From: an uncultured Ardenticatenaceae bacterium
GTDB taxonomy: Bacteria; Chloroflexota; Anaerolineae; Promineifilales; Promineifilaceae
Length of the DNA stretch: 42,412 nt
Direction of reading: 5' to 3'
Assembly: GCA_964405285.1 (NCBI GenBank)
Contig: CAYONK010000001.1
Location: forward strand, 1-42,412
Shown here: piece after piece, positions 25,640-33,611 of the stretch
Layout of the letters: each line of letters opens with the position of its first letter
Numbering within the stretch: the first letter of the stretch is position 1
Translations under genes and position numbers: made by a program
The notes under the pieces: generated by a model
Told to the model about the DNA's origin: nothing
What the model saw: the letters and a program-made list of their open reading frames with translations, nothing else
Databases searched by the model: none

Positions 25640-26896
25640 CTACGTTACCCACGATAACTGTAATGGTTCTGTTTGCCGTACTACCGGGGCCTGCTTCAGC
25701 GCCAACGTCTCCAACAGGGAGGCTGCGCGTTCCGCGCCCTTATAACGCGCAAGCGCCTGTTGTACACAACGCGCGTTTTGTTTGAGGTTACCGTCATAAA
25801 GCATTGCCCTGACGGCCTCTTTAAGATTTATTGGGGTCACTTCATTGGCAGGTATACAGTGGGCAACCCCTGCTTGCCCACACACTTTAGCCACATCGTA
25901 GCTTTCGCTGGCCGTAACAATGATCACCATGGGCAACCCATGCGATAAGGTGTTGAGCATAATACTTGTCGTCCCATTCGTGATCACGCCAGCAGCGTAA
26001 GGAAGAATAGCCTGGTGTGGGATATGTTGGCTCACAAAGAAGTTGTCCGGCAAATTGCTCTGCGTTATTTCAGGATCATTGGTTGACACAGCCACCGCAA
26101 CAGGCTCCTGTCTGAACGCCTCTAAGAAAACGGGCCAAAAATCAGGTATGCCATTCAATGTCTCCCCATCCTGTTTGAAAGGCTTTGACCAGCGGTTGTT
26201 GTGTTGTACATAGATGATAGGCTTCTGAGATGCGGTTACGCTATTTAGCCAGTCCAACAAAGGTCTCTCGGGGGAAATGGGCGATTTCCACAAACAGCCA
26301 CCAACCAGATGCACTTTGTCGGGAAGTGTTTCGATATCTTTTTGTAGTTCTGGCACACTACGTAGGAGAAACAGGTCTCCCAATAAGGCTGACTGGGGAT
26401 AAGCGCTTTGCTCTAATGGTGGCCTCTCACCTGTTGAGTACAGGCAGGCCAAACGGTATGTCTTCCAAAGGCCGTCATACCGTTTGGCCTCCCAGCTTTC
26501 AGAGTGCAAGCCCTCAATGCCGTTAATGGTTGGCCAGGGGTACGTCGCTAACCCCAAAACCGCGACCGGGATGTGGTGCTTTTGGGCGATAATAAGAGGC
26601 CCTATCGCCAACGCCGAAGTAACTATGACATCTGGCTCAAATGTGTTCACGGCAGCCGTGACGTAATCTGCTTGCTTGCGAATACCTTGTAGATCCATCC
26701 ATTGCGATACAGCAAAGATGTCATGGGCCTGGTCATTCGTGGGGATATATGAATACCCCGATTGCTCCAGTGTCGCTGCAAAAGAAGGGCCGGTGGTAAA
26801 GGCAACTTCATGGCCTCTGCTTTGTATTTCAGAGGCAACGGCCATGGCTGGGTAAACATAGCCTTCGCTTGCCAGAACGCAAAATAGATAACGCAT
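25640..26896 (-). CDS. GT-B fold glycosyltransferase, GT1/MGT (macrolide-glycosyltransferase-like) family
   Basis: MRYLFCVLASEGYVYPAMAVASEIQSRGHEVAFTT is a typical GT1/GT28 N-terminal acceptor domain. The C-terminal donor region reads GGC..., ITNGTTSIMLNTLSHGLPMVII. The gene starts 5 nt after the lanM stop. Confidence 0.8.
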   Translation of the reverse strand: MRYLFCVLASEGYVYPAMAVASEIQSRGHEVAFTTGPSFAATLEQSGYSYIPTNDQAHDIFAVSQWMDLQGIRKQADYVTAAVNTFEPDVIVTSALAIGPLIIAQKHHIPVAVLGLATYPWPTINGIEGLHSESWEAKRYDGLWKTYRLACLYSTGERPPLEQSAYPQSALLGDLFLLRSVPELQKDIETLPDKVHLVGGCLWKSPISPERPLLDWLNSVTASQKPIIYVQHNNRWSKPFKQDGETLNGIPDFWPVFLEAFRQEPVAVAVSTNDPEITQSNLPDNFFVSQHIPHQAILPYAAGVITNGTTSIMLNTLSHGLPMVIIVTASESYDVAKVCGQAGVAHCIPANEVTPINLKEAVRAMLYDGNLKQNARCVQQALARYKGAERAASLLETLALKQAPVVRQTEPLQLSWVT

Positions 26897-26901
26897 TTGC
26901 T

Positions 26902-29900
26902 TTACTCCTGGGGCAATTCAAACAGCAACAGAGAAGGTATATCTGCCGGATAGGCAACTCTTAAGAGACTGTACCCAATGCCGGCAAGGCCATTCATGAG
27001 ACCCATAGTCTCGATACCGAGCGGCGCGCCGCAAATAAGTCCTTCCTGGCAAATGGATGCTATGAGATCGTTCGCTAACTGCTGCACGTGGGCTTTTAGG
27101 TTAGCATCTGACAGTTGTTGTGCAGCCTGGAGCAAGAACTCCAGGTTGCCAGACGCGCCATGACAGAGCGAGTGGTTGTCGCCCACTCCTGTGGTGAGTG
27201 CGCTTTGCACGGCCGTTTTGATCTCCTCGCGCATTTGGGGGTCATCCATATAGCGGGTGGATGCTAAACGCGCCATTCCCACGCCGGTTATCCCATCACA
27301 CCAGGTGGCAGGCAACTTAGATCCCTCGGCAGCTAAAACAGACCGCTCATAAGCGATAGCAGAAGCGGCTGCCTGGTAAAAACGAGGTTCCCCGCTGACG
27401 TGGTGCAGTTTCAATAATGCCCAGGCAATCCCGCTCCCCCCAGTGGCAAAGCCTACGTTGTGAGAATTGTTTTGTAGATTCTTCTCTTGCCAGGATATGC
27501 CTGATGCTGAATGCTGTGCCTTGTCGAGCAGCCAATCGCCGCATTGTATTGCCGCATCTAGCACCGGTTTTGAAGGACGATGGGCATACAGGCTGGTAAG
27601 ACAAACAATCGTACCGGCCGCGCCAGAGAGGATGTCAAAATGGGTATCGCGTTGGATGAGTGAGGTAATGTGCTGCACATAATGTTCGGTGCGTGCGAGA
27701 AGGTCTTCGTCTTGCCAGAGAGTACCCAGATGCGTCAGGGTATAAATAATGCCACCCCATCCATCAAATCCGCCAATCAATTTAAGTGCGCGCTTCATGG
27801 CTAATGTTGGGTTTTCCACCCAGCCAAGCACAGAGTTGATTGTGTGCCGGGCCAGGGTGGTGTAACGGCCGTTGTCCGTCACGCGCCCCAGGTGAGCTAA
27901 AAACAAAGCGCTGCCCGGCAAACCACTGTAGAGGCTTGTGTTCCCCGCTTCCAGGAACCACTTATGTTCTTGGGCATATAGATCAACCCAGGTGGCACGA
28001 TCTCCTTCCCGGATGGCTGACGCCGCAATTCTCTCCCCTAACACGTTCGCCAACGCAAGCGGATCGGGGCGTGTACCCGGTGAGGCAAGCAGGACGGGTT
28101 TTCTCCGCACTTCGCTGGCAGACGACGACCGGACAAATGAAGCGCGCACAAACCAAACCTGCCGCTCGTAATCGGCCGCGCTCAAGTCTCGTAGCCGGTT
28201 TTTAGCCAACTCCAGCCCAGACTCTTCCAGGTAATTGGCGATGCAGTCGCCGCGGCTGCTCCATACATGCTCTGAACCGGGTTGGGTCGTGAAAAAAGGA
28301 ACATCCAATTGCCACAAATCGTTGCGTTCAAAAGGAATTAACTGTTTTAAGTGAGGCTGATCAGGCACTTCAAGCCACAATTTGTCACATGTTTTCTCGT
28401 AATTCAAGCCATCGCGCAGCTCTTGTGGTTGTAAGCATTGCCGCAATAACAGGGCATAGGTCATGCTGTTTCTGGGCACAATGCGCGTTTGATCGGTTGC
28501 AAATTGGTCTAAGGGGCTGCCGGGATGTAATAACTCGTCACGATGATCGTGCAATAACCAATACATAGCGTGAAATCCGGCAAGAACCTCGTCTATATAC
28601 GCCAGGCTGTTTATCGGTTGCCCTTGCAGGTGGGGTTGGTGATTTGTCACCCCTCCCGAAATTGGTTTGTGGGCGTACTGCATTTTGTCCGTTCCTACAT
28701 TTTCCAATACCAACGCTGTTCGTGTACTCTCGCTGGCAGCATCTCCCATGCCGCCTATGTCCAAACCGAGGCTGATTAACCTGATGTTGGGCAACAACAA
28801 CGGGTTGACTACCGAGTCGTTGATTTGTTTGTAGGCCGTGGCGATTGCGCCGTGCGCAGCCATATATGTAGGATGAAATAATGTCTCCAGATCGATCAGC
28901 ATGGGGTGTTCACCGGAAGCGATCACATTTTCATAATGAAAATCAACCCCTTTCAAAATGGTTAACAGCCCCAGATACCCTCCTTGCCTGGTGAAGAAAC
29001 GCCTGACTTCTGCTTCTGTGGCGCAAGCCTGCGCAGACACAAATTCGACCCAACCATGGCTGCTGCGATTGAGCAGCGGTAATGTTGCCAGGGGTGGGGT
29101 GAAACCTCGCGCATTGATCCAGCAAAGCAGAGATTGGAAATGCGCGTCAACGTCGAGTGGTTTGGGCTTATAGACCAACTTTTCGCCGGAGCGAAAGGTG
29201 ACGATCATGACTCTGGCGCTGCCAGCGTGGCGGTCTCCGGCATTGGCGTTGATCTGGGCTACACAATCAGAGGGATCTATCGCTGCGAAAGTATGGCAAA
29301 TGTCTTCCCAATCGCTGCATAAGCGCTGCAGGAATAGGCGTGTTGCTTGAACCCAGTTCTGCAAAAAAGTAATCAGCAAACGAGCCAGGACCGGATATTC
29401 TTGTAAGAGGGAAAGCGCCAAATCTGGTTGATGCAGACGGCCGATGAAACTTTGGAAACGAGCTTCTGGTGTTTCACCTTGTAAAAGGCCCAGCACACGT
29501 GCCGCTTGAAGTTCCAAGACCATGACCGGCGTCAATATCGCTGTTAATTCGTCTAACAAGGGGCTGAACAAGATATCTTCGATGGTGGTTTTATCAATCG
29601 GGCTGGGGAAACGGCCGTTTTGCCCAACAAGCTCGCTGACAGTTACATGAACGGCCGTTTGCGATTGCTGGATCAATGGCTTGATCAATGCGAGAAAAGT
29701 CGTATCTATCTTTGCCCGCAAAACCTGCGATAGCCCAGCATCGGCGTCAAGGTTTGTCGAAAACGCCGCCAATAACTCAGCAACCCACGCTTGCTTCGCC
29801 ACACGCCCTTGCAAAGTCACTGCCGGTTCAGCTAATAAAGAGAGCAGCCCCTCTTCTGTCAGATGGCTCTCCGCCAATCTCTGCGCAAAATACCCATCCT

Positions 29901-30096
29901 GGTCAAAAGGTCGCTGACGCTTCCATTGACCCAGGCGCTTTAGATGACGTTCAGAAGGCGCTTGTTCCACAGGTAAATTGTTATGGTCCTGATAGAGAGA
30001 ACTTGTCCGTTCAAACAGCGTTGCTGCCTGTAACCATAAGGGCGTGTCAAATTTTGCATTCAGCATGGCTAAACTCAACGGAGACAAATTTTTCAA
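26902..30096 (-). CDS. lanM: Class II lanthipeptide synthetase LanM (dehydratase + LanC-like cyclase); start uncertain (TTG 30096 or ATG 30066)
   Basis: Dehydratase motifs GDRHAGSARVMIVTFRSGEKLVYKPKPL and HYENVIASGEHPMLIDLETLF. Cyclase motifs GGSGIAWALL, WCDGITG and CHGASGNLEFLL, which carry the Zn ligands. Confidence 0.95.
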   Translation of the reverse strand: MKNLSPLSLAMLNAKFDTPLWLQAATLFERTSSLYQDHNNLPVEQAPSERHLKRLGQWKRQRPFDQDGYFAQRLAESHLTEEGLLSLLAEPAVTLQGRVAKQAWVAELLAAFSTNLDADAGLSQVLRAKIDTTFLALIKPLIQQSQTAVHVTVSELVGQNGRFPSPIDKTTIEDILFSPLLDELTAILTPVMVLELQAARVLGLLQGETPEARFQSFIGRLHQPDLALSLLQEYPVLARLLITFLQNWVQATRLFLQRLCSDWEDICHTFAAIDPSDCVAQINANAGDRHAGSARVMIVTFRSGEKLVYKPKPLDVDAHFQSLLCWINARGFTPPLATLPLLNRSSHGWVEFVSAQACATEAEVRRFFTRQGGYLGLLTILKGVDFHYENVIASGEHPMLIDLETLFHPTYMAAHGAIATAYKQINDSVVNPLLLPNIRLISLGLDIGGMGDAASESTRTALVLENVGTDKMQYAHKPISGGVTNHQPHLQGQPINSLAYIDEVLAGFHAMYWLLHDHRDELLHPGSPLDQFATDQTRIVPRNSMTYALLLRQCLQPQELRDGLNYEKTCDKLWLEVPDQPHLKQLIPFERNDLWQLDVPFFTTQPGSEHVWSSRGDCIANYLEESGLELAKNRLRDLSAADYERQVWFVRASFVRSSSASEVRRKPVLLASPGTRPDPLALANVLGERIAASAIREGDRATWVDLYAQEHKWFLEAGNTSLYSGLPGSALFLAHLGRVTDNGRYTTLARHTINSVLGWVENPTLAMKRALKLIGGFDGWGGIIYTLTHLGTLWQDEDLLARTEHYVQHITSLIQRDTHFDILSGAAGTIVCLTSLYAHRPSKPVLDAAIQCGDWLLDKAQHSASGISWQEKNLQNNSHNVGFATGGSGIAWALLKLHHVSGEPRFYQAAASAIAYERSVLAAEGSKLPATWCDGITGVGMARLASTRYMDDPQMREEIKTAVQSALTTGVGDNHSLCHGASGNLEFLLQAAQQLSDANLKAHVQQLANDLIASICQEGLICGAPLGIETMGLMNGLAGIGYSLLRVAYPADIPSLLLFELPQE

Positions 30097-30410: not shown

Positions 30411-30620
30411 TTATCGAGTGTTAATCTTGGTGTTACCACAAGTGTTGATACAGGTCCAGGCTCCACCGGCAACTTCTTCCAACTCTTCATCCGACAATTC
30501 GGCCATGTTGTCGGGGGAAGGCGGCAAAGCAGCGAGTTGATCGGGGGATAAACTGTTGCGGAATTCCTCATCTTTCCAGGCCTGCACAATTTCTTGGGGG
30601 GTTGGGGTATATTCTGACAT
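30411..30620 (-). CDS. lanA: Lanthipeptide precursor LanA, mersacidin/lichenicidin-type leader with double-glycine site; predicted core AWTCINTCGNTKINTR
   Basis: AAGGAGA SD lies 11 nt upstream. The leader is IVQAWKDEEFRNSL...AELSDEELEEVAGG, with hydrophobic residues at -4, -7 and -12. The 16-aa core has 4 Thr and 2 Cys. Adjacent to lanM. Confidence 0.9.
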   Translation of the reverse strand: MSEYTPTPQEIVQAWKDEEFRNSLSPDQLAALPPSPDNMAELSDEELEEVAGGAWTCINTCGNTKINTR

Positions 30621-30782: not shown

Positions 30783-31058
30783 TTAATCAAGCGGTACAAT
30801 TGGGCGATTATGCAAAAGATAGTGCCACCACGTATCCTCAGATGGCTCGGTATCTTTTCCCCATTCAGCGTCAAGGCCAAAAACCGTGAACTTCCGATCC
30901 TCTTCCTTTTTGTACTCTTGTATCCAGCGTTGTGCATCCACAACAGACTCGAAGGCACATCCGCCACGATACTCTTCTGTACGACCTACTTTAAAGAGGG
31001 CGCCCCATACTTGTAGCTGCGCTTTGTATACTTTTTCTGGGCCGACAGTGTAGATCAC
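30783..31058 (-). CDS. Small hypothetical protein (91 aa, GTG start) directly upstream of lanA
   Basis: AAGGAA SD lies 7 nt before the GTG. Acidic, Trp-rich and cytoplasmic-looking. I recognised no family. Confidence 0.5.
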   Translation of the reverse strand: MIYTVGPEKVYKAQLQVWGALFKVGRTEEYRGGCAFESVVDAQRWIQEYKKEEDRKFTVFGLDAEWGKDTEPSEDTWWHYLLHNRPIVPLD

Positions 31059-31273
31059 GTCTTAATTCCTTATTGTTGGGTCGTGTGTTTAACTATGCTC
31101 GATCATACTGGAAGCCTGACTTGGGGACATGATGTAACAGCTATATTTTCCAGCGTGACATTGAGCCTATATAAATGTGCCATCAGTTGGAGAAGGAACA
31201 AGACTGTGGCGACATTGCTACATCACAAACGAAAGGAATAATTGCGGTAGCCTGGCGAAACTTGCGCCGGATT

Positions 31274-31301
31274 TTGACCGTGTAACCGTGTAACATAGAT
31301 T
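31274..31301 (+). promoter_or_regulatory. Candidate sigma70-type promoter of the MDR reductase gene, containing tandem CCGTGTAA CCGTGTAA
   Basis: -35 TTGACC (31274-79), 16-nt spacer, -10 TAGATT (31296-301). The spacer holds a perfect tandem 8-mer (31278-31293). The ATG lies 42 nt downstream with an AAGGATGG SD. Confidence 0.35.
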
Positions 31302-31342
31302 GCCAACTTGTACTACAGGGTAACTGGCAAAAGGATGGTGAA

Positions 31343-32449
31343 ATGAGAAATCTGGCAGTGATCAATCATGCAGAAGAATCGCTATGTGATAGCGCAAAGG
31401 AAACGGTTGAGATAGACGGCGTTCCCGTTACCTTTGGCATGATATCCACGTCTGTACCTGAGTTTAATGGAAACGCTCCTGAAAACCGGCAGCGGGTCTT
31501 GGTGAGAAAGAAGGCCTTTTCCTGTAACTACCGTGATAAAGCCTTTATCTTTGCCGCCAGCAAGCAGACCCGACCAGGGGTCTATCAACCTATTGGCTCA
31601 GAGTTTGCTGGAGAGGTGGTTGATATTGGGCGTGATGTTGTTGGATTAGCTATTGGGGATAGAGTGATTGGGAACAACCATTACTATGACAACAGTTCTC
31701 CTTTTGCCGAAGGTGTGCCCACAAATAAGGCATCCAAAGAGTACGAGGTGTTGCACTACGCTAAGCTCATCAAGATCCCGCCGCAAATGTCGGATGAGGT
31801 CGGCGCTGCGTTTAGCATCGGGGCGCAAACCGTTTATGGCATGATCCGCAAGCTCAACTTGAAGCCTGGCGAAAAAGTCCTTGTGACCTCGGCAAAATCG
31901 AATACATCTTTGTTTGCCATCAATGCCCTCCGCCAATACGATGTTGCCGTCTACGCCACCTCGACAAATGATGATTATGCTGACAGATTACAAGAGATGG
32001 GCGTACGTCAGCTATTTGTGGTGTCGCCCGAGCCTGAGGCAGGCAGCATTATGGCTGCGGCCGGAATGTTTGACTGCGTCCTTGACCCCTTTTTTGATCT
32101 CCATCTAAGCTGGGTAGTGCATTTAATGACCTATAATGCACGCTACGTTTCCTGCGGCCGTGCTGGTCAATACCATCGCATCATTGATAAACAACCGCCT
32201 GTTATAGAGAAAACGAATGCCTTGACGGATGTTCTATCCAACGTTGTGGTGAAGAATATGAAACTGATCGGAAATTGTGTGGGTGTTACGGAAGACCTGG
32301 CTCAAGCTATCGCGGATTACACGACCGGGCGCTTTGATGTTGTGATTGACTCAGTTTACTCTGGTAAACAGCTAGGTGAGTTTATCAACAGGAGTTACAA
32401 TGCCAGAGAACGGTTTGGCAAAGTGATCTATAAATATGATGGTGATTAA
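31343..32449 (+). CDS. Medium-chain dehydrogenase/reductase (quinone-oxidoreductase/enoyl-reductase-like, apparently zinc-free); LanJ-type dehydroamino-acid reductase candidate
   Basis: GSEFAGEVVDIGRDVVGLAIGDRVIG is the GroES-like MDR core, with Ser in place of the catalytic-Zn His. LKPGEKVLVTSAKSNTS occupies the position of the Gly-rich dinucleotide motif. The gene is divergent from the lanA operon. Confidence 0.7.
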   Translation: MRNLAVINHAEESLCDSAKETVEIDGVPVTFGMISTSVPEFNGNAPENRQRVLVRKKAFSCNYRDKAFIFAASKQTRPGVYQPIGSEFAGEVVDIGRDVVGLAIGDRVIGNNHYYDNSSPFAEGVPTNKASKEYEVLHYAKLIKIPPQMSDEVGAAFSIGAQTVYGMIRKLNLKPGEKVLVTSAKSNTSLFAINALRQYDVAVYATSTNDDYADRLQEMGVRQLFVVSPEPEAGSIMAAAGMFDCVLDPFFDLHLSWVVHLMTYNARYVSCGRAGQYHRIIDKQPPVIEKTNALTDVLSNVVVKNMKLIGNCVGVTEDLAQAIADYTTGRFDVVIDSVYSGKQLGEFINRSYNARERFGKVIYKYDGD

Positions 32450-32510
32450 CCAAGCGGTAACACAGGCGAAGAACCTGTGTTACCCTGGCTACATATTAGT
32501 TATCGCCTGA

Positions 32511-33611
32511 TTAAACACTTTGTAGGGCAGACTTGGCGGGTGGTAACCAGCTCTTGTTGATACATAAATAAGCTTTTGTCTCGTAAGAGGAGTTTGGGTG
32601 GATGACCACCTTAATATGGTTGATGCACCTGACAAGCACATTGCGGGAATATGGGCCGTCCACAAAATACCCCTCTTGTTCTTGGGGCAGAAGGTTATAT
32701 TGACCACCATACCACATCAGCAACGCTTCTCTTTTATTTGGCATACATTGCCCCATCTTGACGAGATGTTCTAGCAACAGAGGCCAACGCGCTTCTTTTC
32801 TGGGGTTGTGTTCAGTCAGGTAGCATTCAATCCCAATTTTAGGGGAAATCTCGCCATTGATAACGTCTAATTGAAAAGCGATTCGATCTAAGAACGGGTC
32901 TATTTCGTGCAAGAAAGTGTGGATAGTGTCATAACAACCGGGCCATCCCACATCTTTCAAATAGGGGATGACTTGTTCTGGTGTTATATCGGCCACGCAT
33001 AGCTTGATGGGCACGGAATCTCTACACAGCATTGCCCCTACAGAAAACATATAAGAATGTTCTGGTAACGAGTTGAAGCAAGTGTCTATCTTGTGCGCAA
33101 GCAAGGGGGATAAAGGTGCTGCGAGCAATATCTCCAAAGCGACTTTGGTGGCTTGATGATGCCTTGATCTGAGTGTCTGCAGCTCGGTTGTACCGGGTTT
33201 CTTTTCATACGTGACAAATAATCCAGGGATTGGGATGTGCGGGGGAGGGCCATCCACATCAAACTCAAGCCAAATGTCAGCCACCTCCATATTTAGAAGT
33301 TCTACCTGTTCCCACTGCGCGCAGAAATCTTGCACACGCTGCCAAGCATGGCTGTCGAGTACCCCTTGGTTGGGCAGTAGATAGTTCGGGTTGCTGTTGG
33401 TGAGGAAAGTACGAGAACCATCGTGCGCTAGAAACTGTGGAATAAAATCAACAGAATCTGACTTGCCTAAACGACATTCTAAAACCAAACTGGATGCAGG
33501 GGGTAAAATTTTAGCTATTGTTTTGAGGCGCGCCAAAGCTGTGGGAGAAACCAATTCAGGACTCATCCGGGATTGGGTAACTTCTAAGTACCGAGTAGGT
33601 GAATATATCAT
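32511..33611 (-). CDS. Hypothetical protein (366 aa), no recognised family
   Basis: Long ORF with ordinary-looking composition. No signal peptide or TM segment. It shows five spaced strand-like motifs (see findings). Confidence 0.6.
   Translation of the reverse strand: MIYSPTRYLEVTQSRMSPELVSPTALARLKTIAKILPPASSLVLECRLGKSDSVDFIPQFLAHDGSRTFLTNSNPNYLLPNQGVLDSHAWQRVQDFCAQWEQVELLNMEVADIWLEFDVDGPPPHIPIPGLFVTYEKKPGTTELQTLRSRHHQATKVALEILLAAPLSPLLAHKIDTCFNSLPEHSYMFSVGAMLCRDSVPIKLCVADITPEQVIPYLKDVGWPGCYDTIHTFLHEIDPFLDRIAFQLDVINGEISPKIGIECYLTEHNPRKEARWPLLLEHLVKMGQCMPNKREALLMWYGGQYNLLPQEQEGYFVDGPYSRNVLVRCINHIKVVIHPNSSYETKAYLCINKSWLPPAKSALQSV

Follow-up and report, generated by a model that had tools for sequence, protein, structure and literature searches.

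The window analysed here, a 42,412-nucleotide stretch of DNA from an uncultured member of the Chloroflexota, contains a reductase gene that faces away from a set of lanthipeptide biosynthesis genes. The reductase gene lies at positions 31343–32449 on the forward strand and encodes a protein of 368 amino acids, which we assign to the LanJA family of MDR reductases on the basis of homology, motifs, phylogeny and dN/dS. Translation starts at ATG, and the N-terminus, MRNxA, is common to the homologues. LanJA enzymes turn dehydrated Ser and Thr residues of ribosomal peptide antibiotics into D-amino acids, and serve as tools for placing D-amino acids in ribosomal peptides. The original prediction placed an MDR open reading frame at this position, divergent from its neighbours, and our analysis agrees: it stands opposite a unit with the order orf91-lanA-lanM-GT.

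This unit is read from the minus strand. It is headed by an open reading frame of 91 amino acids (30783–31058), followed by the precursor gene lanA (30411–30620), the gene for the class II lanthipeptide synthetase LanM (26902–30096; DUF4135 at 382.9 bits and LANC_like at 208.3 bits) and the gene for a macrolide-GT-like GT1 glycosyltransferase (25640–26896). The precursor has 69 residues and a double-glycine leader ending in ELEEVAGG, after which comes the core AWTCINTCGNTKINTR. Further minus-strand genes to the left of the reductase encode a DUF7005 protein, HlyD, a C39-ABC exporter and a second ABC protein. A distance of 284 nt had been given between the reductase gene and the lanA operon; this is the size of the divergent intergenic region (31059–31342) up to the 91-residue open reading frame, while lanA itself is 722 nt from the start of the reductase gene and LanM is 1.2 kb from it. 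The reductase is therefore encoded with a lanthipeptide dehydratase and a precursor, in an arrangement that is syntenic in a relative of the same genus. The LanM of this cluster provides the sole LanC-like domain in the assembled genome, which is 90.6% complete.

The 91-residue open reading frame matches no Pfam or NCBIfam model and has no homologue in other LanJA loci. Its 90% protein identity in the same-genus relative and a dN/dS of 0.12 make a real gene very likely. The GT1 gene directly after lanM is 80% identical at the amino acid level in the same relative, but none of the other 68 LanJA loci has a counterpart, and we therefore regard it as a genus-specific addition to the cluster. On the other side of the reductase is a convergent minus-strand open reading frame of 366 amino acids that belongs to no family (orf366, 32511–33611). 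The 61-nt gap between the two genes holds a perfect hairpin (32456–32484) with an 11-bp stem and a 7-nt loop, for which we calculated −22.5 kcal/mol and z = −4.44 relative to shuffled sequences; it is terminator-like, with no U-run on either strand. Homologues of orf366 are found in about 25 of the 68 LanJA loci (among them L004, L014, L017, L019, L025, L029, L030, L033, L035, L036, L047 and L061), where the precursor cores tend to end in Trp (…KIKW, …PKPKW, …QGW, …KKHW). The core of the present cluster has a Trp at position 2. No Pfam match was obtained for orf366, nor any match in a sequence comparison with PDB structures. The Trp-ended cores would fit a Trp-modifying enzyme, for example a lanthipeptide prenyltransferase such as MppC (PMC12715784).

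A neighbourhood similar to that of the window occurs on plasmid pPg_03 of Pseudanabaena galeata (L068), where LanM is divergent from LanJA and where genes for a MinD/ParA protein, a cNMP-domain protein, a DUF7005-like protein and an NHLP-type secretion protein are also present. The regulatory and export genes to the right of the reductase may travel with such clusters across phyla.

The divergent intergenic region had also drawn attention for a perfect tandem 8-mer. The repeat does exist, as two copies of CCGTGTAA at positions 31278–31293 of the forward strand, and CCGTGTAACCGTGTAA is the only perfect 8-nt tandem in the window. A first-order Markov model gives 0.61 such tandems against the one observed, and half of the simulations (50%) contain at least one. 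In the orthologous spacer of the same-genus relative (G086) the tandem is absent, and an 8-bp indel and substitutions are found instead. Being at chance frequency and not conserved, it was rejected as an operator and has no regulatory support; the best reading is slippage duplication in the recent past, or chance. Sigma-70-like matches in the same region (31059–31342) are likewise at chance level, with three found and a mean of 3.2 in shuffled sequences.

A protein search with the reductase returned 814 homologues, the top ones being annotated as zinc-ADH or QOR-like. The nearest two are 92% and 89% identical, the second coming from a Chloroflexota MAG, and below these is a large and mostly cyanobacterial group at about 50% identity. 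It includes ACC81659 of Nostoc punctiforme PCC 73102, which is 48% identical over the full length, is the sole LanJA family member of its genome, and is encoded directly upstream of LanM and beside six NHLP-type precursors with Ser/Thr-rich, Cys-free cores. The npn cluster that yielded NpnJ has been described with the same arrangement (PMC5808125), and because the neighbourhood matches that description we infer from organism, cluster context and single copy that ACC81659 is NpnJ. A tblastn search against plasmids recovered LtnJ, which closes the ltnA1-A2-M1-T-M2-J operon on pMRC01 (31.6% identity, E 3e-46) and SacJ on the Staphylococcus aureus plasmids for staphylococcin C55 (E 2e-42), the two covering an identity range of 30–32%.

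The reductase has the two-domain architecture of the MDR superfamily, a GroES-like domain followed by a Rossmann domain, as judged by Pfam and by structure prediction. It scores above the Pfam cut-off for ADH_N (36.5 bits, cut-off 23.5) and below that for ADH_zinc_N (27.7 bits, cut-off 31.8). The AF2 model has a mean pLDDT of 84.7 and an MDR fold, and Foldseek aligns it to ADH, QOR and enoyl reductase (ER) structures with a TM score of around 0.7. The best matches among solved structures are the CurF ER, the JamJ ER and zeta-crystallin, with E values from 1e-12 to 1e-10 and the same TM score. Among the matches from this comparison, made with both profile and Foldseek searches, there was no LanJA structure with an SNTS cofactor loop.

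Two motifs had been taken to mark the protein as a divergent enoyl-reductase-like outlier with a degenerate cofactor site. Both are present: GSEFAGEV covers residues 85–92 (codons 31595–31618), at the position of the GHE motif of zinc ADHs, and SAKSNTS covers residues 183–189 (codons 31889–31909), in place of the Gly-rich dinucleotide loop. The second contains no Gly at all. HMM alignment to the CurF ER sets KSNTS opposite SGGAG, and in the AF2 model residues 182–186 form the beta1-alphaA loop of the Rossmann domain, between strand 178–181 and helix 187–196. Their interpretation as signs of decay does not stand. In an alignment of 68 homologues, drawn from about ten phyla, G85, S86 and T188 are kept throughout (68/68), F88 and S186 in 67, S189 in 66 and N187 in 65. 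The reductase differs at none of the 49 positions with conservation of at least 95% in the family, which include the invariant set SxNYRD, GS[ED]F, SNTSL, DPxxD, CG, NCxG and RFGK. The characterised members have the same features, with SAKSATSLF and GSEF in LtnJ, SARSTTSIF and GSEF in SacJ, and AAKSNTSLF and GSDF in NpnJ. Since GS[ED]F and SNTS are invariant or nearly so, they do not indicate a degenerate enzyme, and judged across this alignment Ser in place of His and SNTS instead of the Gly-rich loop are the normal LanJA architecture. Nor are they an argument against the use of NADPH: NpnJ carries this loop too and is reported to require NADPH in vitro (PMC12328550; PMC5808125), and by analogy with these published data the reductase would be expected to use NADPH as well. 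The absence of the His and of the Gly-rich loop is likely to be misread repeatedly, and recognising both as hallmarks of LanJA rather than of decay corrects this.

The LanJA family is labelled zinc-dependent in the literature. Throughout the alignment the GHE His is an invariant Ser, and the reductase has no Cys cluster for a structural zinc; the conserved cysteines are C61, C271 and C312. The Cys of LtnJ (C115, in VIPDC) is found in the Bacillota subclade alone, and the corresponding sequence is VIANN in NpnJ and VIGNN in the reductase. This Cys was presented as the presumed zinc ligand of LtnJ in the description of rodencin (PMC11519912).

To place the protein we built a maximum likelihood tree of 68 LanJA-like sequences from about ten phyla, with eight other MDRs of the same genome as the sole outgroup. 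The 68 sequences group together with an SH-aLRT of 100, and a long branch sets them apart from the other MDRs; within this clade the reductase falls in the subclade that holds NpnJ and LtnJ/SacJ. In a profile search, 39 of 66 homologue loci had a LanM no more than 10 kb away, as did 22 of the 33 that have full flanks, often at less than 300 bp. Several of the loci counted as lacking LanM are cut short or show a piece of LanM at their edge. LanJA homologues without LanM in Bacillota (Pediococcus, Apilactobacillus, Bombilactobacillus and some Staphylococcus) adjoin ABC transporters, and on plasmid pMD136 of Pediococcus pentosaceus (L070, 1537–9116) there are also a ‘HopA1 family’ protein and a serine hydrolase, so that a split, class-V-like dehydratase may replace LanM there. 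One further locus (L060), on a contig labelled ‘uncultured Acetobacteraceae’, has NpnA-like precursors and a LanJA nearly identical to that of a locus from the genus Nostoc (L073); the contig is probably of cyanobacterial origin and was mis-binned, the source being a lichen or cyanobiont metagenome.

The gene is sporadic, being present in one of 60 relatives of this genome, and a family gene occurs in four of 81 Nostoc genomes. The one relative belongs to the same genus, has about 85% nucleotide identity and possesses the complete cluster with an unchanged gene order. Comparison of the two gave dN/dS values of 0.082 for the reductase, 0.14 for LanM, 0.18 for the glycosyltransferase, 0.13 for orf366 and 0.12 for the 91-residue open reading frame. 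The reductase has the lowest value of the five and is under strong purifying selection.

These data bear on whether the protein could be a housekeeping quinone oxidoreductase, or a pseudo-enzyme that ceased to bind NAD(P)H when the Gly-rich loop was lost. The ADH_zinc_N score below the cut-off and a loop without any Gly would suit this explanation. We find it hardly credible, however, as the same loop is invariant in the 68 homologues, which include enzymes of demonstrated activity, the distribution is sporadic and linked to clusters, and the branch that separates the reductase from the other MDRs of its genome is long and fully supported. No NCBIfam model, those for QOR and ADH included, came near its cut-off, the best score being 54.8 bits against 349. 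Neither this curated cut-off nor the AxxGxxG loop nor the broad vertical distribution of a housekeeping QOR or zinc ADH is found here.

Homology, a shared clade with characterised members, the presence of all invariant residues and linkage to LanM all support family membership. On its sequence the reductase is a new and uncharacterised member of the known LanJA family of LtnJ/NpnJ type, and the original proposal of a LanJ(A)-type candidate is well supported by these lines of evidence and by selection. We consider it likely that the gene encodes a LanJA-type peptidyl dehydroamino acid reductase, an NADPH-using MDR tailoring enzyme of the class II cluster orf91-lanA-lanM-GT1 and its export genes. 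LanM would form Dhb by dehydrating Thr residues in the 16-residue core, and two of these Dhb would go into methyllanthionine rings. The reductase would then transfer hydride from NADPH to the C-beta of a leftover Dhb, with a proton added at its C-alpha, giving D-aminobutyrate and a mass increase of 2 Da per site. Both the activity on this LanA and the choice of Dhb rather than Dha as substrate are predictions.

The neighbouring genes could instead point to a different reduction, for which the enzyme would have been recruited: that of a double bond in a prenyl group attached by the orf366 protein, or of a keto or enone intermediate linked to the glycosyltransferase. About 25 of the 68 loci do have an orf366 homologue along with the reductase, and the GT1 of this cluster is at none of the others. 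Yet the NpnJ and LtnJ loci are without orf366 and the glycosyltransferase while their enzymes have every invariant residue in common with the reductase, which nests in the clade of proven peptide Dha reductases, and neither Pfam nor the sequence comparison with solved structures supports orf366 as a prenyltransferase. Recruitment of this kind is very unlikely, and we return to reduction of the lanthipeptide itself.

The identity of the residue that is reduced depends on the precursor. The core that follows the double glycine has 16 residues with four Thr, two Cys and no Ser, and that of the orthologue, AWTCVGTCGNTKINAQ, has three Thr, two Cys and no Ser. A Ser-derived Dha outside the rings, the substrate of LtnJ, SacJ and NpnJ, is accordingly absent from both. 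As neither core contains Ser, any dehydro residues can only be Dhb, and the reductase either makes D-Abu from Dhb or has no substrate here. Thr residues outnumber the two Cys, at four here and three in the orthologue, which should leave one or more Dhb free. The surplus of Thr had been put forward as a source of plausible substrates; the count of four Thr to two Cys is correct, but characterised LanJA enzymes other than RodJA act on Dha only and the core is free of Ser. LtnJ, the founding member, SacJ, and NpnJ, the nearest characterised enzyme by sequence, reduce Dha only (PMC12328550; PMC11519912), and RodJA is the single LanJA demonstrated to reduce Dhb (PMC11519912). CrnJ was considered as a second precedent and ruled out, as it is of the flavin-dependent LanJB type (PMC5808125). 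The Ser-free LanA thus lowers confidence that the enzyme acts identically to NpnJ and LtnJ, and not that it belongs to their family.

It could be that the protein is a genuine LanJA homologue with the Dha specificity of NpnJ and LtnJ, and so without a substrate in this LanA; it would then either be idle or act on a precursor in the unassembled part of the genome, approximately 10%. That NpnJ and LtnJ leave Dhb unreduced (PMC12328550; PMC11519912) and that Ser is missing from both cores are in keeping with this, as is a genome that is only 90.6% complete. Against it, a dN/dS of 0.082 over two species with Ser-free cores argues for maintained function. No second lanA gene turned up in a search of the window and the assembled genome, leaving a single lanA-like gene beside the single LanC-like domain, and there are other loci with LanM and LanJA (such as L033 and L044) in which only Ser-free precursors were detected. 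On balance a Dha-specific enzyme seems unlikely. Given these other loci, and given that the gene is under strong purifying selection in two species whose cores both lack Ser, reduction of Dhb to D-Abu is favoured over the absence of a substrate, although the Dhb step would have one precedent, RodJA from Bacillota. Residues 97/98 and 110–112 showed no pattern with Ser-free precursors across the family.

In its most specific form the proposal is held tentatively, with slightly less than even confidence: a Dhb-reducing LanJA from Chloroflexota (Anaerolineae) that would have a Ser-free core of 16 residues as its sole substrate and convert it to a D-aminobutyrate peptide, in a family that would bind NADPH by the invariant S-N-T-S loop and have no canonical zinc site. 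If true, this would be the first Dhb-reducing LanJA beyond the Bacillota enzyme RodJA, and the many Thr-only, Cys-free precursors encoded beside LanM and LanJA in cyanobacteria, Acidobacteriota and Gemmatimonadota would give rise to D-Abu peptides. NpnJ, the workhorse tool, is confined to Dha (PMC12328550), and a relative under selection with a Thr-only precursor is a rational candidate for forming D-Abu. The reductase also belongs to a compact lanthipeptide pathway with several tailoring steps, in an uncultured Chloroflexota lineage.

Among known enzymes, the PKS trans/cis enoyl reductases and QORs of the MDR superfamily (CurF ER, JamJ ER and zeta-crystallin) have the same fold as the reductase and are without zinc. 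Unlike the reductase they keep the Gly-rich AxxGxxG loop; identity is 15–22% and the LanJA invariant set is absent.

RodJA, from the rodencin pathway of Bacillus subtilis EH5, carries out the activity predicted here, the conversion of Dhb to D-Abu (PMC11519912). Its Arg100 and Asp101 have been singled out, other LanJAs having Thr/Ser-Asn at these positions (PMC11519912). The reductase has Arg97-Asp98 at the position of T100-N101 in LtnJ, matching the Arg100-Asp101 described for RodJA. The same-genus orthologue differs in having Ser-Asp at 97/98, and the positions vary across the family, so the match to RodJA may be coincidental and we give it little weight.

LtnJ, of lacticin 3147, and SacJ, of staphylococcin C55, resemble the reductase in the SA(K/R)SxTS loop, in GSEF and in belonging to class II lanthipeptide operons. 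They differ in forming a Bacillota subclade on a long branch with the Cys of VIP(D/N)C where the reductase has VIGNN, in being encoded last in their operons and in reducing Dha only (PMC11519912).

The comparison with NpnJ (NpnJA) is closer. Precursors found beside LanM and LanJA in cyanobacteria, Acidobacteriota and Alphaproteobacteria are mostly Ser/Thr-rich with 0–1 Cys and often form arrays of 3–10 genes (L005, L009, L011, L012, L017, L025, L040, L060 and L076), and NpnA-like linear D-amino acid peptides therefore seem to be common far outside Nostoc. The precursors served by NpnJ are six NHLP peptides that contain Ser and no Cys, and its gene runs in the same direction as npnM, whereas the reductase gene is divergent and is associated with a single short-leader LanA that has two Cys, four Thr and no Ser. 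NpnJ is also reported to be specific for Dha (PMC12328550), unlike the Dhb activity predicted here. The two enzymes nevertheless have GS[ED]F, (A/S)AKSNTSLF, DPFFD, CG, NCxG and RFGK in common, both are without the Cys of the Bacillota ‘VIPxC’ sequence, and LanM adjoins both.
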